NCBI GenBank assembly: GCA_002433075.1
Contig: DJHM01000038.1
Span: 4,075 to 68,074 of the forward strand
Source: Latescibacteria bacterium UBA6620
GTDB lineage: Bacteria > Latescibacterota > UBA2968
Length of the DNA stretch: 64,000 bases
Direction: 5' to 3'
Shown here: one piece after another, positions 5,466-57,717 of the stretch
Layout: the number at the start of each line of letters is the position of its first letter
How positions within the stretch are numbered: the stretch's first letter is position 1
The notes under the pieces: generated by a model
What the model was told of the DNA's origin: nothing
The model's input: the letters and a program-made list of their open reading frames with translations, nothing else
The model's database searches: none
Position numbers and translations under genes: made by a program

Positions 5466-6458
5466 TTAACTCGCGATTTTCCTGACGAGATCAATACAAC
5501 GATTGGAATAGCCCCATTCGTTGTCATACCACCCGCAGACTTTCACGAGGTTGCCTTCCATAACGGCCGTGATCTGGGCATCGAAGATGCAGGAGTGCGG
5601 GTTCCCGATAACGTCGGCAGACACGATCGGATCTTCCGTGTACTCCAGAATGCCCTTCAACGAGCCTTCCGCATTCGACCTGAAGGCCTCGTTGACGGCT
5701 GCGACGGATGTTGCCGTCTTCAGGGTTGCGACGAAGTCCGTGAAGGACCCATCCGGCGTGGGGATGCGGACTGCCATCCCGTCCAGTTTCCCGTTCAATT
5801 CGGGAATCACCTTGCCCACGGCACTCGCAGCCCCCGTCGTTGTTGGAATCATCGACACAGCTGCGGACCGAGCCCTTCGTAGATCCTCGTGCGGTGCGTC
5901 AAGCACCCGCTGGTCCCCCGTGTAGGAATGGATCGTCGTCATCAGCCCGCGCTCCACCCCGAAGGCGTCGTTCAAGGTCTTGACCATCGGGGCGAGACAA
6001 TTCGTCGTGCAGGAAGCGTTGGACATCACCGTATCGTCGTCGGACAGCGTATCGTCGTTGATTCCGAAGACAACCGTGGGCAGGTCTCCTTTTCCGGGCG
6101 CCGAGATGATCACCTTCCGGGCGCCCCCCTTGAGGTGCTGTGAAGCTCCATCTTTGCTCGTGAAGAAACCCGTCGACTCGATCACGATCTCCACGCCCTG
6201 GTCACCCCAGGCCAGGTTACCAGGGTCACGTTCGGAGAAAACCTTGACCTTCTTGCCGTCGACGAGCAGGGCCCCATCGGCAGCCTCGACACATCCGGGA
6301 TATCGTCCGTGCGTCGAGTCGTACTTGAGCAGGTGGGCCAGTGTCGCTTCGTCAGTCAGGTCGTTAATTGCGGCAACTTCAATGCCCTGCGACTGCGCCG
6401 CACGGTAGACCAGCCGACCGATTCGGCCGAACCCGTTGATCCCAATCCTTACTGCCAT
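5466..6458 (-). CDS. gap: type I glyceraldehyde-3-phosphate dehydrogenase
   Basis: MAVRIGINGFGRIGR start (internal Met of ORF 5466..6491) and the active-site SNASCTTNC motif. It abuts the pgk start. Confidence 0.95.
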   Translation of the reverse strand: MAVRIGINGFGRIGRLVYRAAQSQGIEVAAINDLTDEATLAHLLKYDSTHGRYPGCVEAADGALLVDGKKVKVFSERDPGNLAWGDQGVEIVIESTGFFTSKDGASQHLKGGARKVIISAPGKGDLPTVVFGINDDTLSDDDTVMSNASCTTNCLAPMVKTLNDAFGVERGLMTTIHSYTGDQRVLDAPHEDLRRARSAAVSMIPTTTGAASAVGKVIPELNGKLDGMAVRIPTPDGSFTDFVATLKTATSVAAVNEAFRSNAEGSLKGILEYTEDPIVSADVIGNPHSCIFDAQITAVMEGNLVKVCGWYDNEWGYSNRCIDLVRKIAS

Positions 6459-10048: not shown

Positions 10049-10743
10049 ACCACGTCGTCCACGAGCCAGATGTGCTTGTCTTCAACCGAACCTTTCACGG
10101 AAAACGCCCCTTCCACATTTTCGCGACGTTCGTGGGTATCGAGCGCCGTCTGGCTGGATGTCGCCCTTATCCGGACCACAAGGTTGGTCGACAGTCGACC
10201 GAATCCAGAACGGCTCAATTCCCGTGCGATCAACTCACTTTGATTGTAGCCTCGCTCCCTCTGCCGACTCGAGTGGAGCGGAATCGGAACGATTTCCCTC
10301 GGCCCCCTCTGTTCGATGCCGATCCCGCGCAATCTTCGAATCAGTCCCCCAGCCAGGGTTTTCACGACAGCTGTCCGGTTCCGGTACTTCAGATCGTGCA
10401 GAAGCCTCTGCACACCTTCCTCGAACGAAAAGCCCACCACCAGCCTCCGAAAAATGAACGCCTTGTCCTCACGTATATTACATTATGCAACCTCCGGCTC
10501 GCCCGGACACCCACATCGGGGGCACCCATTCGCTTCCACATATCCAAGACTCTCCGAACAGTCCTCGCAGACCCTGGATTCCACGAAATTCTGCCTTTCA
10601 CCGCACAGAAGGCAGGCAGGCCGGGAGAGGAACGCCTCCAATACGATCGTCAATCGGGTCGCAAAGTGAGAAAAAACAGTGACGTAATCTGGCTCACTCT
10701 CGTTTTGGAGAGGACGATGCGTGTTTGGGGTAGAGTTATTCAA
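10033..10743 (-). pseudogene. comF: comF (ComFC-type amidophosphoribosyltransferase) 5' part, with in-frame TAA and truncated after the PRPP loop
   Basis: ORF 10483..10743 carries the N-terminal Cys pairs (CLLCGE...CEDC...CPRCG). After TAA at 10483-10485 the same frame continues REDKAFIFRRL...LKYRNR...PIPLHSSRQRERGYNQSEL...HIWLVDDVVTTSAT, then loses ComF similarity. Confidence 0.7.
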
Positions 10744-43094: not shown

Positions 43095-43598
43095 TTATGG
43101 TTTCCTGAATGAGATCGTCGGCACGGGAGGCCATTCGACCCCTTCTAGCCCATCGGGGCCGGCTTGCCTGGCTCGCTCACGACCCTCGTCGATCCTCTTC
43201 TTGACCAAGCCGATGTCGACTCCGAGAAAGTCATCCGGGAACTGTTCGAGTTTGGCGCCTGCGTTGTTGAAGTGCTTGACCACCCCGTGATAGACTCCGC
43301 GTCCCAGCTGGTAATAGGCAGCCGCAAGCTGAATAAGGGCCTGGAAGAATACCCGACTCGGGACATCGCAACGTCGCCAGACCTCCTCCCACGCCTCGTG
43401 ACTTTCCCAATACTCGGACGAGTTGAAGAGCTCCGCACCACGGTGAAGATCGATCCAATCCTCCTGATTCAGTGGAGGTTCGACGACCTCTTCCGGAGCC
43501 AGCGAATATGCCGGACGCTCGCGCGCACTCTCGAAGTCTCGTTTCACACTCGCCTCCGGTTTATCCAGAATTCGACGCAAGATGGTCGAGCGCACCAT
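43095..43598 (-). CDS. DUF309 domain protein
   Basis: 167 aa with LFNSSEYWESHEAWEEVWR...FFQALIQLAAAYYQLGRG. The start is uncertain because it overlaps the upstream ORF by 38 nt. Confidence 0.75.
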   Translation of the reverse strand: MVRSTILRRILDKPEASVKRDFESARERPAYSLAPEEVVEPPLNQEDWIDLHRGAELFNSSEYWESHEAWEEVWRRCDVPSRVFFQALIQLAAAYYQLGRGVYHGVVKHFNNAGAKLEQFPDDFLGVDIGLVKKRIDEGRERARQAGPDGLEGVEWPPVPTISFRKP

Positions 43599-44298
43599 CG
43601 ATCGCCGCGAGATGTCCCAAGACCCGGACGTCGAAATCTAGACTGCTCGGAGACTCAGCCGTGATCATCCTTTCCGTATGCCCTTCCCTGAAGAGGGAAA
43701 TCGGGATGCCGCTGCCGTCTCTAAGCTTCGGTGCGTTCATATTCGGAAAGATCACTCCGTCGGCGGCGTCCTCACCATCGATCCGGGTTCGGCCGTCGAT
43801 CGGACAGACGGACCTCACACGCTCGATCAGCATTTGACCGATCGAAACCTTGTTGAACTGTTCGTAGAGATAGTAGCCCGGGCTCTCCCAATCCTCATGA
43901 AGATCCAGAACGCACCGAATGTCGCGACCCGCAACCAAACTCTTCACACACGAAATCTCCGGCACATCATCGCGCAAGTATGCCCAGTTCACGTCGATGT
44001 CCTGGGCATTGTGCCGCTGATCGCGAACTCAGGCGTGTGGACAGAGACAGGGCACCACCGTCAAACGAAACAAACGACTCCATCGTTCGGCCCCATTCTC
44101 GAGAAACCGCAAAGCCGCCTCGACGCCCGCGGGCTCATTGCCGTGCGTGCCCGCATTGATGTAGATGTTGGGATGGTCTTCGTTCCCCAGTTCTACGGTC
44201 AGAACGGGATGCCCCGCAATGTCGTCGAGAACGCGGCATCGTTCACGCTGGAGAGCTCGCACCCCGTCAACGATCGATGAGTAATCCCTCTCGCTCAC
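43561..44298 (-). CDS. M14-family zinc carboxypeptidase-like protein, interrupted by in-frame TGA (44029-44031)
   Basis: ORFs 44029..44298 and 43561..43992 share a frame: ...NIYINAGTHGNEPAGVEA...VVPCLCPHA*VRDQRHNAQDIDVNWAYL...VLDLHEDW.... The HxxE, N..G.D.N and LH.D motifs are all present. Confidence 0.65.
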
Positions 44299-44320
44299 GA
44301 AGCGCCCTTCTTGTCAGATC

Positions 44321-45288
44321 TCAAGCCATCGCTTCGATTTCGCTCAGGGCTTCGATCACGCGGCCATGGATGGCACCGTTGCTCACCACGAAACCCCGAT
44401 TCCGCTTCATTAGAGGATCCGATCGAAAATCCAGGTCCCTCCCACGCATATCCGTAACCCGCCCTCCGGCCTCCTCCACAATCAAGGAACCCGTTGCATG
44501 GTCCCAGATCTTCTCCGCATAACGTTTGCCGTCGGCTGAAGGCAAGCGCAAATACAGAACGGCGTCTCCCCGGGCCACGGCGGCGTATTTGGCCTGGCTG
44601 TCCATTCTCAGGGAGGACGTCTGAATATCGACGACGCGCGCAGCCGCTGACTGAAGTGCGGGATTCCCGTGCGAGGACTCTACACTTTCGACGAAACGCC
44701 ACGAGTCCGGAGAGGAGGCATCGCTCACCGCGATCGAATCTCGTCGTCCGGTCGGCAACACGGACCAGGCCCCTCTCCCCGAACGGCCAGAAACGTGCTG
44801 CTTTTCCCTTTGTCCAGCACGGGACACGCGAGGGCGGCGACATCCACGCGGCCCTCGACGATCAAGGCGAGGGCAATTGCGTACTGGTCGTTTCTCAGGA
44901 ATCCCTTGGTCCCGTCGATCGGATCGATGGTCCAGAACCGGTCCCCCACGGTTCAATTTCCCGGGTCGATCCAGGCCCGAATCTCCGGCTCTTTGGCGTC
45001 GTACCTACACCTTTCCAGGTGTTATTCGATCGCCCCCATCAACCCGCAATGTTCGGGTTGAACCAGATCGCTCGCATCTTCTTCCGCTACGATCGCATCG
45101 TCTGGGAACGTCTCGACCAGCCACCGACAGATCAGGGCTTGTGAACCAAAGTCGGCAACCGTGACCGGACTGCTATCGGATTTTTCGATCGCGTAACTCG
45201 CATCGAGTTCGCCACGTACCTGCTCGCACAGGACGGCCGCTTCACCGATCGCCTGAAGGGCGACATCCACCTCCGCCTCGTAGTTCAC
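44321..45288 (-). pseudogene. cysQ: 3'(2'),5'-bisphosphate nucleotidase (CysQ/HAL2-like, inositol monophosphatase family) with two in-frame stops and one frameshift
   Basis: It reads ...SPVTVADFGSQALI...AIE*(TAA 45022)HLERCRYDAKEPEIRAWIDPGN*(TGA 44953)TVGDRFWTIDPIDGTKGFLR...VRGEG. A slip in the C4 run at 44770-44773 follows, then AWSVLPTGRR...KIWDHATGSLIVEEAGGRVTD. Confidence 0.7.
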
Positions 45289-46166
45289 TTCGAGTCCACC
45301 GATCGATCCAGCCAGCCAGGGAGATCAAGCTCGGCGGATTTTCGCCACGCTGTCAGCAGCAAAGACGCAGAGAACCTCACAGCCTCCCGAGAGCGCTCCA
45401 TCGCGAATGCCGAGACGTGTTCGTTCGGTGCTGGGTCCTGCGGGTCGGTCCCAGGCAACACATCACCCAAGGCATAGACCTCGTCGACCAACCGGAAGCC
45501 CGCAGAAAACTGAGCCATAATCGTCGGCATCAGCGAATCCACCGATGTCGGAGCAATCCCGGCCGAAAGTAATGACCTTGAGAGACCGAGCGTTTCAGGT
45601 AAAGCATCAACCTTCATATGAATGCCTCGATGCTGCATCGTTCCATCCTCTCCCGGTCGGCCATCGGCGTGCGCCGTGAGGTGTAGTGGCTGACAGAGGT
45701 CCTGGGCATAGTGAGTTACGTAGCCCGCATAAACGAGGCACTTGTTCTGGATATGGGCATTGTTCGGCCACTTCCGGTGTTCGGCGAAAGCCACAGCCAG
45801 GCGCTCGGTCCACTCGCCAACTGCGTAGGGAAGGAAACCAACCTTTTCTGGACGCAAGCCCATCTCGTGACACAGGGCGATGTAGTGAAAGCGCTCCATC
45901 GGGAGAGGTCTGCCCTCGAGCAGCTCCAGATCCAGGTAGTGCTCGACCCGTTCCGCATTTCGTACGACGGGAGTGCCTCGATTCTTAGCAACGTCGGGAT
46001 CGTAGGAGGCGTGGGCGACCGCACGTCCTCCATCCCTGAAGAATTTGGGAACGTCCTGCGGGAGCGCGTCAATAGCGGCCATCGAGAGGATATCGTGCCC
46101 CCCACCCCACCAACCGAACGCGGGTGAAACCGTCAGGAAGAATACGGCGATGACCATCCGAATCAC
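45285..46166 (-). CDS. S1/P1-nuclease / zinc phospholipase C superfamily protein, secreted
   Basis: 293 aa. After the signal peptide it has the W(W)GGGGH motif, and also HYAQDLCQPLHLT. Confidence 0.7.
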   Translation of the reverse strand: MIRMVIAVFFLTVSPAFGWWGGGHDILSMAAIDALPQDVPKFFRDGGRAVAHASYDPDVAKNRGTPVVRNAERVEHYLDLELLEGRPLPMERFHYIALCHEMGLRPEKVGFLPYAVGEWTERLAVAFAEHRKWPNNAHIQNKCLVYAGYVTHYAQDLCQPLHLTAHADGRPGEDGTMQHRGIHMKVDALPETLGLSRSLLSAGIAPTSVDSLMPTIMAQFSAGFRLVDEVYALGDVLPGTDPQDPAPNEHVSAFAMERSREAVRFSASLLLTAWRKSAELDLPGWLDRSVDSK

Positions 46167-46420
46167 ACGCAGCTCCTTTTCCCTTGACCCGGAACGGGTA
46201 TGCGTTTACACTCTCTCCCTGTCTTCGGCCTGCGATTCGTTTCGAGCTCTCTGGGGAGTGTAGCTCGATTTCGTCCGCTGGCCGATCCCTCTTTCAGCAC
46301 CCCGGGCAAATGCCTGCGGCTGCTTTGATTTTTCCGCCCTAGGATGAGGGCTTGGCAGGAGCCAACTGAAGAGCGCTGAATCTACCCTTCTGCGTCTTTT
46401 CTGTCAACGGAGCGAAATCA

Positions 46421-46452
46421 AAGGGCCACCCGCCACGTGACGGATGGCCCTT
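46421..46452 (-). terminator. hairpin terminator after tRNA-Sec
   Basis: AAGGGCCA / TGGCCCTT 8-bp stem with a 16-nt loop, followed on the minus strand by TGATTTCG. Confidence 0.5.
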
Positions 46453-46458
46453 CTTGAA

Positions 46459-46556
46459 TGGCGGAAGCGCATCGGAATCGAACCGATCCTGTGTGGTTAT
46501 AGCACACAACAACGGCTTTGAAGGCCGCGGGGGACACCAGTTCCCCTTCCGCTTCC
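46459..46556 (-). tRNA. selC: tRNA-Sec (anticodon UCA), CCA encoded
   Basis: Reverse complement reads GGAAGCGGAAGGGGAACTGGTGTCCCCCGCGGCCTTCAAAGCCGTTGTTGTGTGCTATAACCACACAGGATCGGTTCGATTCCGATGCGCTTCCGCCA. It has anticodon loop CTTCAAA, a 6-bp long variable arm and an extended acceptor. It lies next to selAB. Confidence 0.9.
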
Positions 46557-46569
46557 CGGTCAATGGATC

Positions 46570-47587
46570 TCAGTCGGCCTGCAGCACGGCATCCTCGCGT
46601 GAGATCTGCTCCTTCTGCCATCCGTAGTACACATCACCCTCGTAGGAAACTTCGGGCGTTTCAATTGCCCACAGCTGCTTCCGGATCAGCCAGTTCTGAG
46701 GATCCAACTTGAAGGCCTCCTTTAACTCGGTGACGGCGGCCTCCCGCTCATCCTCCGTCATCGGCCTGATCTCGGTTTCCTTCGTCCCGAGCCACCTCTC
46801 CGGGAGGGTATTGGTTTCGGCCCACAAAGTCAGGTCTGCCAGGAATTCCTCGTCGACGATGTTCACCGAACCGACCGGCCTTACGAGTCGCCCCGCTTCG
46901 TCCAGGATGATCGCAACAGGCAAAAATTTCAGGCTGTAGGCCTTCCCGATCTGATTGTGTTGGTCCAGCAGGGCCCGATACATCCCGCCCGCCTCTTCCG
47001 CCCAGGGCTTCGCAACTTCTGCGCCCTGGGCATCTTGAGCGATGACCACCACTTCATCCCGATCGCCCTGGGTCTCGTAGAATCGCTTCCACCCGGGTAG
47101 CTGACCACGACACCCTCACCGGGAAGCCCACATATAGAAGACGGTCCGCCTCCCCACATAGTCCGTAAGCCGAACCTTTTCTCCTGTAAAGAGGTCTGGA
47201 AGTTCGAACCCGGGAGGGCAATCCCCCACCCCGAGTCCAACGGCCCCCCGCCTCAGTTTCCACGATGACGCGTGCTCCGTCGATCCTCCACGCAAAGTCG
47301 AGCGGCGAAGCAATGTGATCCAACCGAACGAAGGCCGCCGCCATCTCGAGCAAGTCACCCGCAGCGAGTGGAATGCACAGGTCACCCCGGCAGACAGAAA
47401 GCTGATCTTCCCCCGGAATCGGCTTTACCTCTGCTCCGGTCTCCGCACAGAACGGGTACAGTTCCACGTAGACCACTCCATCTTGATCGATCGCTCGCAC
47501 TGCGATCGACCGCCCGTCGATCGTCACATCGTAGTCCATCGTCGATCCTCTTCCCGGCCACAGAAACAATCCGGCTATCACGAACAT
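46570..47587 (-). CDS. candidate selenoprotein: secreted/anchored protein with TlpA/ResA-like thioredoxin-fold domain, TGA (47116-47118) at the redox-motif position
   Basis: ORFs 47116..47385 and 46570..47052 are one frame joined by TGA: ...GFELPDLFTGEKVRLTDYVGRRTVFYMWASR-U-GCRGQLPGWKRFYETQGDRDEVVVIAQD...KFLPVAIILDEAGRLV. The N-terminal part (ATG 47587, MFVIAGLFLWPG...) joins through a slip in the C6 run at 47244-47249. The gene sits between selB and selC. Confidence 0.6.
47067..47096 (-). promoter_or_regulatory. candidate bacterial SECIS hairpin
   Basis: The RNA CCGGGU GGAA GCGA UUCU ACGAG ACCCAGG has a lower stem CCGGGU/ACCC(A)GG and an upper stem GGAA/UUCU. The apical GCGA loop is about 29 nt 3' of the UGA. 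Confidence 0.3.
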
Positions 47588-47591
47588 CCAC

Positions 47592-49472
47592 CTACAGCAG
47601 GACACGCACATCTCCCTTCCGTTCCGTTACGCCCTGTGCGTCAAAGAAATTGAGCAACGGTACCGCGAACTTCCGAGAAGTGCCGACTAGATCGCGAAAG
47701 TCCGAAACACCGATTTCCCCACTGTCCTTCGCGAAACGAATGAGTTTCTCTCGGATGTCGGCGATCACCTCGGCGGCGAACCACATCGTGTCCTCCAGCC
47801 GCACAAGGTCTCCACGTGTGGCCATCGCATCCAGAATCGGCCCAACCTCGCTCAGGCCGGCTGCCGCTTCGAGCGCATCGAAATCGGGGGGCGACGCACC
47901 CGCCTCTCTTAACGCCTCCAGGATCGACTCCCGAGCCGTTTCCTCTTCAGGACCGAACGTGACGGTGTGGGTGGCCGTACGCAGTGCCGGCCCTTCCTTC
48001 ACCAGGCCACCGTCCGCAACCACAGCACCGATCACCCGCTGCAAGTAGTCTGAATCGTACAAGTCGAGGACCTGGCGCAAGGCCTCCCGGGACATCCCCG
48101 ACTGAAGGGGATAGGATGCGTGATGGCGCTCGACCAAACCGACCACCTCATCGCACAGCACCCCCCAACGATCCTTGCTGACATAGCCTCCGTCCGTACC
48201 GGGAACGCAGAGGGCGGCTCCCGCGGCGACGAGCGCGTTAAGGAGGTCGGAAACGATGTCGACAGAGACACCCAGCTCCGCGGCCAGGTCGGACGTCCAC
48301 GATATTTTGTACGGATCCCGTGTGAGGTAGTGCAGAAGTACCTGCTCCGGGTCATCCGCCTCCAGCTGTTCCACAGCGGCAATGACGTCAGGTCGTAGCC
48401 TTCGGTGCTTAGGGGGCTTTGCATCAAGCACAACCCCACCTCCAAGCGTCACAACGGGACTGAACCGGCGAATTACGAACCGGTCACCGCGTGCGGCCAC
48501 ACCGGGAGTTTCCAACCGAAACTGCACGAGGGCCGATTCACCGGGTGCGATCTCGTCCCCCTCGAGCACGATCACCCGGGCGAGCACACCCCGAGGACCC
48601 AGATGCAGGTGAACGCGAGCCCGATTCTTGACGGCGGATGCATCATTCAGCACCTGCAGACGGGCGTCGATCATATAGGTTGTCTCGAAGTGTCCCGGCT
48701 GCACCAGTAGATCGCCCCGCGTCACATCCCCCACGTCGACACCCGCGATGTTCATCGCCACGCGAGCTCCGGCGACGGCCTCTCCTACGTCCCGGCCGTG
48801 GGTCTGGAGGCCGCGGACCCGAACCGATTGGCCGTTCGGCAAGAGGTCGACGGTAGATCCGTACTTGACTGAGCCGGAGACGACAGTACCCGTCACAACG
48901 GTACCGAAACCACGTACCGAAAAGGCACGATCCACAGGAAGTCTGAAGATACCGCTGTCGGCTCGCTCCCCGACTTTCGCGACTTCCTCCTCGACAAGTG
49001 TTCGGAGCGTGTCAATCCCTTCCCCGGTCTCGTTCGACACCTGGACGATCGGCGCTTCGGCCAGAAAGGTTTCCGAAACCAGTTCCCGAAGCTCCTCGGC
49101 CACGAGTTCCACCCAATCTTCTTCGACCAGGTCCGTCTTGGTGATCGCGATGATGCCCCTCTCTACACGAAGCAGATTCAGGATACCCAGGTGTTCGCGT
49201 GTCTGGGGCATCGGACCGTCATCCGCCGCCACGACCAGGATCGCCAGATCGACGCTGCAGACTCCTGTCACCATATTCTTGACGAAGCGTTCGTGACCCG
49301 GGACATCTATGAACGTGACGTGGTCTTTCCAGTAGGCAAAACCGATGTCGATCGTCACGCCTCGCGCTTTTTCCTCAGGCAGCGTATCGGTATCGATTCC
49401 GGTGAGCGCTCGCACGAGCGCCGTCTTCCCGTGGTCGATATGTCCGGCAGTCCCCACAATCACGTGTCGCAC
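47592..49472 (-). CDS. selB: selenocysteine-specific translation elongation factor SelB
   Basis: 626 aa with the G-domain [20 protein letters not shown]...DVPGHERF and C-terminal winged-helix repeats. Confidence 0.92.
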
Positions 49473-50920
49473 GGAGTCTCCCGTTTCACACCCAATGCCT
49501 TGAGAACCGCATCGGCAATTTCAGCCACCTCTCCATCAGCCACCGTCCTCAGGTCAAGGTGCAGGACATCGTCACGGACGTAGCCCACAACCGGCGGATC
49601 GCTCGATCGCAGTCGGCGGGCGAACTCACTGGCCGACAAACCGGACTGGATCGTCACCGCAACACTCGGGATCGTCTCGACTGGCAACGCGCCGCTCCCG
49701 GCCTGCGCCGCAGACTCAACGATCTCTACCGTTCCGTCCACCTCCCCGATCTCTCTCGCAAGCAGGTTGGCCCTTTCCTTCACCCGGTCGACCGCCTCTG
49801 TCATCATTCGCATCACAGGATGTCGAGTCCGAAGGTGAGGTTCATTCAGAAACAGCTTCAGGGTCTCTTCGAGAAGGAGATACGTGATCTTGTCGCACCG
49901 AAGTGCTCTCATTAGAGGGTTTTTTCGGATGCGATCGAGGGCGTCCTTTTTTCCCACGAGGATTCCGCACTGTGGCCCCCCCAGCATCTTGTCGCCGCTG
50001 AAAGTCACCACATCCACCCCCGCACCCGCGCTCTCCGATACGATTGGCTCGTGGGGCAACCCGTATTCCCGCACGTCCTGGAGGACCCCACCACCCAGGT
50101 CGTGAAGGACCCCAACCTCGTGCCGCCGTGCGATTTCAACGATCTCTGGCAAGGCCACCTCAGCCGTGAAACCCTCTACCCGAAAGTTACTGGGATGTAC
50201 GGACAGCAGAAGAGCCGTCTTTTCCGTAATCGCCGCCTCATAGTCTCGTGCGTGCGTGCGATTGGTCGTCCCCACTTCGACCATCACCGCTCCGCTCCCG
50301 TCCATAATGTCGGGGATCCTGAATGACCCTCCAATCTCCACCAGCTGGCCACGAGAAACGATCGCCTCACTTCCTGCGGCGAGGGTATTTAGTGCAATCA
50401 GCACCGCCGCCGCATTGTTGTTCACGACTGCCGCCGCTTCCGCACCAGTGAGTCGACAGAGCAATGCGTCCACGTGATCGACGCGAGACCCGCGTTCGCC
50501 CGATTCAAGGTCGAATTCGAGGTTCGTGTAGCCCGATGCGATCTCAGCCACCCGCCCCACGGCCGCCTGCTCGAGAGGCGCCCGGCCAAGGTTGGTGTGC
50601 AGAATCACTCCCGAGGCGTTGATGACACGCTTCAGGTTCGGCGACAGAAGATCGTCGACCCGACGTTTCAGATCCTGCGTGAGCCAGACTTCCAGACCCT
50701 CTTCGGGATCGAATCCATCCGACAGAAGCTTCTGCCTCAGATCGAATGTCGCCTCCCGGGCAAGGTTGACCAGAACCCGTCGGTCGATTCTGGAAGTCAG
50801 GGAGGTGACCGCCGGTAGTTCCAGCAGTCGGTCGACCCCCGGAATCTGCGACAACAGGGACTGCTTGGATTCGGCTTTACTCACGATGAAAACCGCCTCG
50901 CTTCTTCGATTGAGCCACAC
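49460..50920 (-). CDS. selA: L-seryl-tRNA(Sec) selenium transferase SelA
   Basis: 486 aa with N-terminal [13 protein letters not shown] and PLP-fold [18 protein letters not shown]. It overlaps selB by 13 nt. The start is possibly a few codons downstream. Confidence 0.92.
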
Positions 50921-51094
50921 CTTCGCCCCGGGGCGGAATATTGTGTGCTAATCCTTTAAGAACCATGAAGATAGACAGTTTTTCTACCTTTTCAGGGGGT
51001 CTGGGTCGTCCTCCGAACACGATTACCTAATTTATCCCGAGCGACCCTGCCGCGCAATCGCCTTGTCCCCACAAAAGCGGCGCAAGTGGCTTAT

Positions 51095-51123
51095 TTGACA
51101 AGAATTTGGGCAAGTCCTATCTT
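51095..51123 (+). promoter_or_regulatory. candidate sigma70 promoter of the sugar-salvage operon
   Basis: TTGACA (51095-51100), a 17-nt spacer, then TATCTT (51118-51123). It lies inside the 5' end of track ORF 51086.., which argues that the real galU start is downstream. Confidence 0.45.
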
Positions 51124-51196
51124 CATTCGTCATCTGCGCGATCACCCGCAGTTCCCCTGCACGACCCCACTTCCACAGATCCGTCACGAGGATCCT

Positions 51197-52072
51197 TTGC
51201 GCATCTCGAAAGTCGTAGTTCCGGTCGCTGGAATGGGTACCCGTCTGTTTCCGACGACACGCGCCCTGCCCAAAGAGATGCTTCCGGTCGGACGACACCC
51301 GACAATTCAGGTTGTCGTCGACGAGCTCGTCGGGGCCGGCCTGATTGATCTCCTGTTCATCACCGCCCCATCGAAGAAAATCATCGAGCGTCAGTTCATT
51401 GACAATCTCGACGCGGGCACCGGAGCCGGTCCTGCTCTCACTTATTCATTTGCCGAGCAACAAACGCCGCCTGGCTGGAAAAAGCCCGGTGGAACCGGTG
51501 TAGCCATTGCGATGGCGGAGGCGTTCGTCGACGGCGACCCCTTCGTCGTGGCGTACGGCGATACCATCATCCGCTCCACGCACGAGCCCTCTTTTCTGCA
51601 TCGGATGCTGGATGCCCACAGCCGGGAGGATGCCGACGCCACGATCGCTGTTCGAGCGGTCTCCGAAAATCAGATTCCCGCCTACGGCATCGTAGAACCC
51701 GCCACCGGTCAGGACCCGCAATCCGATGCCTTCTGGATTTCGGATATCGTCGAAAAGCCCACCATCGAGGAAGCGCCCAGCAACCTCGCTGTTAACGCTC
51801 GCTATATCTTCGGCCCATCCATCTTCCCACACATTCATCGCCTGGGACCCGTGAACGACGCTGAGGTCGGTATTACGAATGCGATCCGTACCCTCATCGA
51901 AGCGGGAGGGAAGGTTCAGTGCGTACCGCTCGCACAGGGCGAAACCCGCTACGACATCGGGAACCACATCGGCTATTTCAAGGCCTTCATCGACTATGCA
52001 CTTGCCGATCCTGACTGCGGCGACGAGGTGCGAAGCTACCTGTCGACGGTCTGTGCAGGAGGCGACGAATGA
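51197..52072 (+). CDS. galU: UTP--sugar-1-phosphate uridylyltransferase (GalU-like)
   Basis: It has VVVPVAGMGTRLFPTTRALPKEMLPV near the N-terminus. The TTG at 51197 was chosen as the first in-frame start after the promoter. The track ORF begins at 51086. Confidence 0.75.
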   Translation: MRISKVVVPVAGMGTRLFPTTRALPKEMLPVGRHPTIQVVVDELVGAGLIDLLFITAPSKKIIERQFIDNLDAGTGAGPALTYSFAEQQTPPGWKKPGGTGVAIAMAEAFVDGDPFVVAYGDTIIRSTHEPSFLHRMLDAHSREDADATIAVRAVSENQIPAYGIVEPATGQDPQSDAFWISDIVEKPTIEEAPSNLAVNARYIFGPSIFPHIHRLGPVNDAEVGITNAIRTLIEAGGKVQCVPLAQGETRYDIGNHIGYFKAFIDYALADPDCGDEVRSYLSTVCAGGDE

Positions 52073-56291: not shown

Positions 56292-57015
56292 CTACTTCTT
56301 CCTGCGACGTCGTCGTTCGCGCTTCTTGGGCTTTGGCGTAAACTTCTCGACACGCTCTGTGATCGTATCGGCGGTATAGGGCTTCACGATGTAGTCGTTC
56401 GCCCCCTCCTGCACAGCCTCAATGAGGGTTTCGTTATCCGTCAAGGAAGTTAACATCACGCCCGGGATGTTCGTAAGCATCGGGTTCTCGCGAATCTTCT
56501 TGAGCGCCTCGATCCCGTTCATTGCCGGCATCATAATGTCGAGCATAATCATCCCGGGCGGCTCTTTCCTCGCGAGGTCGTATGCTTCGTAGCCGTTCGT
56601 CGCCTCGACAGGGACGTAGCCAAGTTTCTTGATGACGAAACAGAGCGCGCGCCGGCTGGCGATCGAATCTTCGGCCACCAGGATGCGATTCGAATCGATC
56701 GGCGCCGCTGCTTTCTCCTTCAGGGCATTCCCACAGTTGCTGCAGAACTTTGCCCGGCGGAGGGTTCTTGGCGTCGCATTTAGGACGCGCGATCGGCTCC
56801 GCCGATACTTCCTCGGCCTTAGGAGCCGCCTCCACCTTAGCCCCCGGAGTGATTTCGATCGAGAAGGCTTCCCCCACGTGGCGGGCTGGCTCGAGGATCA
56901 TCCCCAGAAGCTCATTGATCGTGTCATCGCCGAATCCGAAGAACTCCCTCGCACGTTGATCCAATTGCTCCCGAAGGTCTGTGCCTTCGTCCTCGAGAAG
57001 CACGGATACGAGCAA
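56292..57015 (-). CDS. zinc-ribbon + receiver-domain response regulator with basic tail (frameshifted as read at 56749-56751)
   Basis: The N-terminal ORF reads ...RPKCDAKNPPPGK. After a slip in an A3/T3 run it continues FCSNCGNALKEKAAAPIDSNRILVAEDSIASRR...DIMMPAMNG...VKP...KKRERRRRRKK. Confidence 0.7.
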
Positions 57016-57033
57016 GCTCGATAGGTTGATGAC

Positions 57034-57717
57034 CTAAAGAATCGTTTTAATTCCGCGGGCAGGAGTCTTGTCAGCTTCGTAATAGTGGTGGCTCAGTACG
57101 GCGTCGCCCAGAAGCTTTGGCAGTTTCCACTTCCGGAAAAGCAAAGCGCCGATTTTCGCGTGGTCGACCCCGATTGAATCCTGCTCGGCCAGAACCATAT
57201 GGGTACTCTGGCCTTTGGAAACCCCGAGCGCGGAACCGTATTCCAGTGGCTTATACTGCACAAAGAACAGAACACCGATGTCCTGGAGCAGACCGACCGT
57301 AAAAACGTCGGCAGGCAAATCCGAAGGAAGTTTCGAAGTGATCGCTGCGGCAGCCACCCCGTGACAGATGGAGCGCTCCCAGAATCTGGCGTGATCGAAC
57401 GGGCCGCCAGCTTCCGTGAGGAAGTGAGAAATGAGGTCAAGGCCGACGCCAAGATTGCACATCTTTTTATAACCGAGAAGCTGGATCGCCTCTTCGATGG
57501 AGCTGGCGGGAGCTGCCAGCTTGTAGAAGCCGGAGTTGACGACCTCCAACATCTTCTTGGAGAGTTCGGCGTCCGACCCGATGCGGTCTGCGACATCCTT
57601 GACCGGCACGCTCAGATCCGACGTCAGCTGCGCGATCTCCGCCGCCGTCGAACTGAGCTTCGGAAAGTCCGTTGCCTAATTGATCAGGTGGACGACTTCT
57701 TCATCGGTTAATGCCAT
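57034..57717 (-). CDS. HDOD domain protein, in-frame TAG at 57676-57678
   Basis: MALTDEEVVHLIN*ATDFPKLSSTAAEIAQLTSDLSVPVKDVADRIGSDAELSKKMLEVVNSGFYK...VDHAKIGALLFRKWKLP. The residues between the TAG and the track ORF start match the HDOD N-terminus. Confidence 0.65.

Follow-up and report, generated by a model that had tools for sequence, protein, structure and literature searches.

A predicted U-G-C selenoprotein gene inside the selenocysteine operon of Latescibacterota and its probable recent inactivation in one marine lineage

The window analyzed here is a stretch of 64,000 nucleotides (nt) from Latescibacteria bacterium UBA6620 (GenBank assembly GCA_002433075.1, contig DJHM01000038.1, positions 4,075 to 68,074) that carries, in order on its minus strand, selA, selB, an open reading frame (ORF) with an in-frame TGA, the selenocysteine (Sec) tRNA gene and a terminator-like hairpin. 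Judged by its sequence, the ORF is a member of the UGC-type TlpA/ResA-like ("Prx-like, UGC-containing") family of predicted selenoproteins, and we refer to it as the UGC gene. We find that the copy in the window is, with a probability of roughly 0.62, a recently inactivated pseudogene in a Sec operon that appears to be still under selection. The initial annotation had described a candidate selenoprotein lodged in its own decoding operon. That description holds for the family; the window copy itself is probably not working, given its frameshift, the damaged stem of its selenocysteine insertion sequence (SECIS), a Trp-to-Arg change, a deletion and a ratio of nonsynonymous to synonymous substitution rates (dN/dS) of about 1.

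The UGC gene of the window lies in two frames (Table 1). Frame A holds the signal peptide and the N-terminal domain; of its two possible starts, the ATG at 47611 yields a better signal peptide than that at 47587. Frame B encodes the redoxin domain and a C-terminal tetratricopeptide repeat (TPR)-like domain. The redoxin frame (47385-46570) is interrupted solely by the TGA at 47118-47116, in RTVFYMWASR-TGA-GCRGQLPGWKRFYETQG, as had been claimed. Around the Sec codon frame B reads MWASR-TGA-GCRGQLPGWK, with W-A-S-R-TGA-G-C at 47130-47110. The redoxin domain matches PF00578 (E 8.4e-12) and PF08534 (E 4e-08), and solved ResA, Etrx and TlpA structures align with E values of 2e-08 and weaker. Against the ResA and Etrx structures, the TGA lines up with the leading Cys of WASWCGPC; the alignment has a gap of one residue, so that the second Cys is that much nearer. 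The Pfam matches and this alignment bear out the proposed TlpA/ResA-like fold and the placement of Sec where the redox motif has its first Cys.

The U-G-C arrangement, seen at first as an oddity in place of UxxC, is the hallmark of a known family (NF041054; PMC2398784), and the U-x-C spacing is genuine and not a sequencing slip. NF041054 ("ResA-like WAxxUGC motif-containing protein") is the best NCBIfam match (E 3.5e-34), and the frame-corrected window protein scores 118.6 bits over profile positions 13-212, a range that spans the frame junction. The curated equivalog cutoff of this 354-position profile is 300 bits; the window protein does not reach it, and together with six intact relatives it falls at 119-169 bits (137-169 for the relatives). 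The window subfamily matches profile positions 1-212 only, and its C-terminal domain (NWLIRKQLWAIE...DVDYGWQK) lies outside the coverage. Since scores stay below 300 bits and only the first 212 positions are matched, we consider the window subfamily a sister subfamily with a different C-terminal domain. Both have a marine and metagenomic distribution and a thioredoxin-fold AhpC/TSA-Redoxin domain with W-A-x-x-U-G-C, in which Sec takes the first Cys position and the motif is a residue shorter than CxxC. Also in common is the extra N-terminal domain of the long forms, which NF041054 profile positions 13-84 match; unlike the known family, the window copy is frameshifted and degenerate. The window family also resembles the extracytoplasmic thiol-disulfide oxidoreductases ResA, TlpA, Etrx and StoA (PDB 2yp6, 4nmu, 1st9, 1jfu) in its fold, export signal, cis-Pro region and FxLPD...G..v.L..f.GK...v.FWASWC context. 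Those proteins differ in having Cys-x-x-Cys without Sec and in lacking both the N-terminal CxxDLCIPL domain and the C-terminal TPR-like domain, and nothing in the gene context of the window points to their known roles in cytochrome c maturation, the spore cortex and methionine sulfoxide reductase supply.

The UXC variant was noted in 2005 (PMC1088965), and 46 Sec-containing sequences of the "Prx-like (UGC-containing)" family, pfam00578, were reported from the Global Ocean Sampling data (Zhang & Gladyshev 2008, PMC2398784, Table 2). The family is also catalogued in a review that cites computational surveys only for it (PMC13188914). In the literature searched we found no experimental demonstration of Sec incorporation by any member of the family, and a full-text search for 'WAxxUGC' gave no match.

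Homologues support Sec as the residue encoded by the TGA. Our homologue scan, restricted to one genome per species, yielded 80 loci labelled Latescibacterota, Poribacteria, "Gemmatimonadetes" metagenome-assembled genomes (MAGs), Acidobacteriota, Chloroflexota/Dehalococcoidia and Actinomycetota; some of the close relatives bear the Gemmatimonadetes label. Of 84 distinct homologous instances under these six phylum labels, 83 have TGA as the aligned codon, within W-[AG]-S-W-U-x-C-R-x-Q-L. Because the search patterns were drawn from the C-terminal domain, this count is not biased towards Sec. What aligns with the TGA is thus a Sec codon among homologues and the Cys position in ResA and Etrx. The sole exception is an acidobacterial locus (L074, 6001-6651; loci and contigs are numbered with the prefix L), in which the codon is AGC for Ser (WASWSLCRE).

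An Rfam scan of 44000-52000 at E values up to 10 returned tRNA-Sec only and no curated SECIS family; the recoding hairpin was therefore defined from the homologues. Downstream of the TGA, 77 distinct sequences have the consensus hairpin CUGCC-NGGNU-GGCAG, which is built by Leu-Pro-Gly-Trp-Gln codons. Its columns 19-23/29-33 are paired in 75 of the 77 sequences. At pair 19-33, 64 sequences have C-G and 12 have U-A (CUG/CAG versus UUG/CAA), and only L074 lacks the pairing, a pattern that we read as compensatory change at synonymous sites. The family hairpin has a stem of 5-6 bp, a loop NGGNU, a spacing of 20 nt and an energy of -10.8 kcal/mol (in L003), and its loop, spacing and energy satisfy the published bacterial SECIS model (PMC13188914, section 5). 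We rejected a family-wide conserved lower stem: many members have one by prediction, yet only 72% of its cells are paired and there is little covariation. In L074 the stem is broken as well (a C.A pair, and CUC replacing CCN), and this locus may show how the region looks once recoding has been abandoned. Besides L074, only the window has a broken stem.

In the window the apical stem (47101-47096/47090-47085) encloses the loop CGGGU (47095-47091) and stands on a lower stem (47115-47105/47080-47070). The hairpin had been placed at 47096-47067 with its loop about 29 nt past the UGA; folding and the homologues instead support a loop that starts 20 nt past the UGA. Of the 77 aligned sequences, 76 have G-C at pair 21-31; the window alone has a mismatch there, A.A (47098/47088), and the sister strain L084, which is outside the alignment, has G.A. 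This central pair was lost through a CAG-to-AAG (Gln-to-Lys) change, leaving the apical hairpin at -4.1 kcal/mol in the window, versus -10.8 kcal/mol with the pair intact, and at about -4 kcal/mol in both strains. For the family, a SECIS is supported by the covariation. In the window the loop CGGGU, the spacing and the total energy (-22.7 kcal/mol) agree with the bacterial model and the fold is more stable than most shuffled controls, whereas the apical stem is mismatched and no Rfam SECIS family matches.

Further lesions accompany the hairpin change. The Trp next to Sec is Arg in both strains of the window's species, versus Trp in every other Sec-containing member, and in the C-terminal domain a conserved Phe is Ser in both strains. 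This domain has also lost 19 residues, with the junction near 46738, in a deletion that is unique to the window's species in the alignment and common to L084. In total, the window breaks 4 of the 41 columns that are at least 95% conserved, against a family median of 0.

We compared the substitutions between the window and L084 in the UGC gene with those in selB. The UGC gene has 11 nonsynonymous and 3 synonymous substitutions and 2 indels (dN/dS 1.16), and selB has 2 nonsynonymous and 8 synonymous substitutions and no indels (dN/dS 0.089); the substitution counts differ with p = 0.011 (Fisher's exact test). The total substitution rate in the UGC gene, 1.4%, is near the selB synonymous rate of 1.6%. 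Such numbers are what one expects, at the sequence level, when purifying selection has ceased on one gene and continues on the operon around it. Purifying selection on selA, selB and selC presumably continues for other selenoproteins elsewhere in the genome.

The frameshift came later. An extra G in a run of six (C6 on the plus strand) separates the N-terminal from the redoxin domain, and the frame that is uninterrupted apart from the Sec codon is therefore absent from the window and intact in L084. Looking up the 293-aa protein encoded next to the gene in the window identified 18 contigs, six of which were retrieved for comparison: two ENA assemblies with SPAdes-style names, a TARA scaffold, two GenBank assemblies and a Logan assembly. 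These six independent assemblies match the window without a gap at 99.94-99.99% identity, and the five that reach the run (L085-L088 and L090) all have G6. Together with the G5 of L084, they establish that the frameshift is real, and the comparison indicates that the extra G is a fixed mutation in a widespread marine population. The initial annotation was correct that the two domains are joined only via a slip in the C6 run; it treated this as something to be explained away, which the independent assemblies do not support. Two other frameshifted alleles were found, in L003 (+1, about 12 codons upstream, 10240-10300) and in L028 (-1, about 5800-6108), either of which may be real or an assembly error. 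About 20 long-form relatives are in frame.

Several observations weigh against an inactivated gene. The 181 codons past the TGA contain no stop. In the metagenome contig L084, which matches the window at 99.0% identity over 3.5 kb, the run is G5 and the ORF is unbroken; WASR-TGA-GC, the Gln-to-Lys change and the 19-aa deletion are common to both. The 53 nt past the UGA still fold at -22.7 kcal/mol (z -2.43; 3 of 200 shuffles equal it), and the 10-bp lower stem in the window, which is absent from the folded close relatives L003 and L005, could compensate for the apical mismatch. The shifts in the window, L003 and L028 all fall in the inter-domain linker at three different sites, which would also fit a tolerated split into two cistrons. 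Finally, the substitution counts are small (14 in the UGC gene), and a dN/dS near 1 cannot separate relaxed from diversifying selection.

These points bear on two alternatives. In the first, the gene is split and working as two cistrons, an exported N-domain protein and a cytoplasmic UGC redoxin and C-terminal part made from an internal start (for example the GTG in GLG-V-GD), like the signal-less Dehalococcoidia forms. Forms without the N-domain and forms without a signal peptide do exist, no family member has a shift downstream of the TGA, and a stable hairpin still forms past the UGA. We nevertheless judge this alternative unlikely: the redoxin part alone has 9 nonsynonymous versus 3 synonymous substitutions between the window and L084 and so is without purifying selection, no convincing Shine-Dalgarno sequence or start codon was seen by eye upstream of GLGVGD, and the conserved Trp beside Sec, the G-C pair of the SECIS and 19 residues have been lost. 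The second alternative is that the gene is functional as it stands. The UGA would be decoded with a lineage-specific SECIS that has a long lower stem, the Trp-to-Arg and Gln-to-Lys changes and the deletion would be adaptive, and only the frameshift of the window would be a very recent, possibly polymorphic, knockout. The open frame of L084 and a possible diversifying selection would agree with this, as would the strong lower stem, which lifts the total stability to -22.7 and -22.8 kcal/mol in the window and L084, respectively. Against it, L084 is itself altered at family-invariant positions (K to N in IGKAY, and I to T), the SECIS break and three of the conserved-site violations are older than the split of the strains, and the rate of the gene is what neutrality predicts. 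We give this alternative slightly less weight and regard it as improbable.

A third alternative is that the frameshift is bypassed, with ribosomal +1 or transcriptional slippage on G6 now and then restoring a full-length exported selenoprotein, possibly as a switch that is regulatory or phase-variable (G5 on, G6 off). The G6 run would let tRNA-Gly re-pair in the +1 frame, and both G5 and G6 alleles are found in nature. The prfB-type of programmed +1 frameshifting is similar in that a +1 change is needed to join two conserved protein halves; the window differs in having neither an in-frame stop nor an upstream Shine-Dalgarno stimulator. There is no 0-frame stop or rare codon past the run, and no stimulatory element was seen in the sequence. 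The shift site is also not conserved, since that of L003 is non-slippery, L028 needs a -1 shift, and the long-form relatives and L084 are in frame; a programmed prfB-like site was rejected on these grounds. Over 3.5 kb the G5 strain has 30 further differences, which argues against rapid switching, and the neutral evolution of the UGC gene speaks against a maintained function. We therefore find slippage very unlikely. Least probable of all, and largely refuted, is that the extra G and the nearby broken genes are homopolymer or consensus errors in an intact gene: the shift does sit in a homopolymer where a 99%-identical contig has G5, and L003 (the closest GTDB relative) and L002 have broken genes of their own on contigs whose names look long-read-like (an unconfirmed inference), but the G6 recurs in gap-free contigs from different samples and pipelines, and the lesions in the neighbouring genes are identical in every assembly that reaches them. 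Errors at a methylation motif (CCWGG) were also rejected as a source of the in-frame stops and the Trp-to-Arg change, as CCWGG is not depleted and the lesions are reproducible.

Table 1. Features of the Sec operon in the window, and layouts of the locus among relatives (X, UGC gene).
Feature	Position or loci	Strand	Evidence or remark
selA, L-seryl-tRNA(Sec) selenium transferase	49460-50920	-	TIGR00474 571 bits vs cutoff 268; PF03841 E 8e-145
selB, Sec-specific elongation factor	47592-49472	-	TIGR00475 371 bits vs cutoff 242; SelB winged-helix domains
UGC gene 5′ part, frame A: signal peptide and N-terminal domain, motif CRGDLCIPL	47250-47611	-	start ATG 47611 or 47587
G6 run (C6 on plus strand), one extra G, +1 shift between N-terminal and redoxin domains	47244-47249	-	independent assemblies; L084 has G5
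UGC gene 3′ part, frame B: TlpA/ResA-like redoxin domain (W-A-S-R-U-G-C) and C-terminal TPR-like domain	46570-47248	-	PF00578, PF08534, NF041054 109-119 bits, PDB alignments
In-frame TGA, Sec codon of the family, position of first Cys of CxxC	47116-47118	-	homologues and WASWCGPC alignment
SECIS-type hairpin	47070-47115	-	minimum free energy -22.7 kcal/mol, z -2.43; family consensus and covariation
selC, tRNA-Sec, anticodon UCA	46459-46556	-	ARAGORN; Rfam RF01852 74.5 bits vs gathering score 47
Terminator-like hairpin and T-rich tail, closing the operon	46425-46443	-	sequence
selA-selB-X-selC layout	window, L003, L005, L007, L008, L010, L028		
selB-X-selD-selC layout	L006, L009		
X-selD-selC layout	L002, L012, L015-26, L031-32		

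The order selA-selB-ORF-selC on the minus strand and the 13-nt overlap of selA with selB, both proposed previously, were confirmed by coordinates and profile scores. Of the Sec-decoding gene set, selA, selB and tRNA-Sec all exceed curated thresholds. Two spacers had been miscounted: the ATG at 47587 lies 4 nt past the selB TAG and not 5, and the tRNA-Sec begins 13 nt, not 14, past the TGA stop of the ORF. Within the 64-kb window, tblastn gave no match to selD, which may lie elsewhere in the genome, and a search there for further TGA-interrupted selenoprotein candidates found none that is convincing.

The UGC gene travels with the Sec machinery among close relatives. In 25 of the 33 distinct loci of the closest clade, the window included, tRNA-Sec plus selA/selB or selD adjoin the gene in one of a few layouts (Table 1); the distant copies, in Poribacteria and others, have no linkage to Sec genes. 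The family has three architectures: a long form with signal peptide, N-domain, redoxin and C-domain in one frame, a short form with signal peptide and redoxin, and the Dehalococcoidia forms without a signal peptide. The N-terminal domain, which has two Cys, is present in some intact members and continues in frame into the redoxin domain in L005-L010, L013-14, L027, L029, L039, L070-71 and others; it is missing from the short forms (L002, L015-26), and L072, L079 and L080 have no signal peptide of any kind. The C-terminal TPR-like domain is found in all intact members. A client inside the Sec-decoding operon had been called unusual. The embedding is real, but the clustering of Sec genes with a client is already known: the selenoprotein gene fdhA beside selA-selB-selC is an established pattern in Proteobacteria (Zhang et al. 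2006, PMC1794560). As in those operons, machinery and client are clustered here, which is thought to allow inheritance or transfer as a unit; unlike them, the client is a small thioredoxin-fold UGC protein between selB and selC, or before selD-selC, and not formate dehydrogenase. In the literature searched, we found no description of a UGC gene within the Sec operon conserved across Latescibacterota-type genomes.

Two features of related loci were also observed. The selD of L002 (8586-9628) itself carries an in-frame TGA, in ...LVSCGG-TGA-ASKLDP, with tRNA-Sec within a few bases; this TGA was read in L002 only. The Poribacteria genome L038 has two near-identical long-form copies of the UGC gene (2374, 6096), 3.7 kb apart.

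Around the sel operon, about 21 kb of the window (36000-57500) is syntenic with L003, an 8.4-Mb Latescibacterota MAG (OZ240241.1), and the genes in common include NTP-transferase, GHMP kinase, MlrC, DeoC, pyruvate:ferredoxin oxidoreductase-type genes and DUF309; this synteny assigns the window to the same phylum. Neighbouring genes are broken in all assemblies of the window lineage that reach them, and the lesions there are identical. A CysQ/inositol-monophosphatase gene (44321-45288, minus strand) is split over three frames, whose 88, 74 and about 146 aa match consecutive parts of PF00459. This split is common to the five independent assemblies with calls there and looks like a real pseudogene; the syntenic L003 has no copy of it at this spot. 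An M14/AstE-like peptidase gene (43561-44298, minus strand) has a single in-frame TGA at 44029-44031 where L003 has TGG, and it is not a Sec candidate, since the aligned residue is Trp. In the L003 gene (12377-13171), an in-frame TAG stands 15 codons farther downstream, at a CAG of the window; the two nonsense changes are independent. An HDOD/zinc-ribbon/response-regulator gene (56295-57675, minus strand) forms one 475-aa ORF in L003 and is split in the window, with tblastn pieces in two frames that overlap near 56683-56753 and an HDOD piece that ends early, at about 57037. A wider survey for split genes based on GC content at third codon positions proved too noisy and was set aside: four of the five Pfam-tested pairs were separate genes, and the fifth was the HDOD/response-regulator split.

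Altogether, the comparisons point to the following history for the inactivated gene. Intact members of the family would be exported thioredoxin-fold proteins in which the first redox-motif Cys is replaced by UGA-encoded Sec, and the hairpin 20 nt downstream, formed from the Gln-Leu-Pro-Gly-Trp-Gln codons, would recruit SelB with Sec-tRNA(Sec). Because the gene and the Sec machinery lie together in Latescibacterota-type genomes, in the order selA-selB-X-selC or X-selD-selC, the two appear to be passed on jointly, and they are probably co-transcribed. Before the window and L084 split, the Gln-to-Lys change would have broken the central G-C pair of the hairpin, the Trp would have become Arg, and the 19 C-terminal residues would have been deleted. 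After the strain split the UGC gene would have evolved at the neutral rate, and in the window lineage the extra G would have cut the signal peptide and N-terminal domain off the redoxin domain. Given the hairpin damage, the Trp-to-Arg change, the deletion, the neutral rate and the frameshift, the full-length selenoprotein is most likely not made in the window's species.

What an intact UGC selenoprotein does can be suggested only speculatively. It could be a dedicated selenium-handling part of the Latescibacterota Sec pathway, either as an exported Sec/Cys oxidoreductase that supplies SelD by capturing or reducing selenium from the environment or with its UGA and SECIS acting as a cis sensor that couples the supply of Sec-tRNA to downstream selD/selC expression. 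We hold such a role to be a long shot. If true, it would explain why the phylum retains the gene at a position between selB and selC or directly before selD-selC, why Cys almost never takes the place of Sec (83 of 84), and why the recoding hairpin stays tied to the peptide QLPGWQ. In that case the window's species would have lost the selenium-handling function and be a natural knockout for it.

For annotation, TGA-split ORFs of this kind, which here were called as separate pieces of 160-195 residues, represent the two halves of a known selenoprotein. Possibly new, in that we did not find them in the literature searched, are a near-obligately Sec-containing subfamily, a SECIS written into the conserved peptide QLPGWQ and the embedding in the Sec operon in Latescibacterota. 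The current understanding of Sec decoding is unchanged by the window copy. Its significance lies in how a selenoprotein gene is lost, which is usually inferred from presence and absence only. The window would offer a dated snapshot of such a loss, with SECIS erosion and an active-site change, then neutral drift and then a frameshift, and this stepwise picture may be new.

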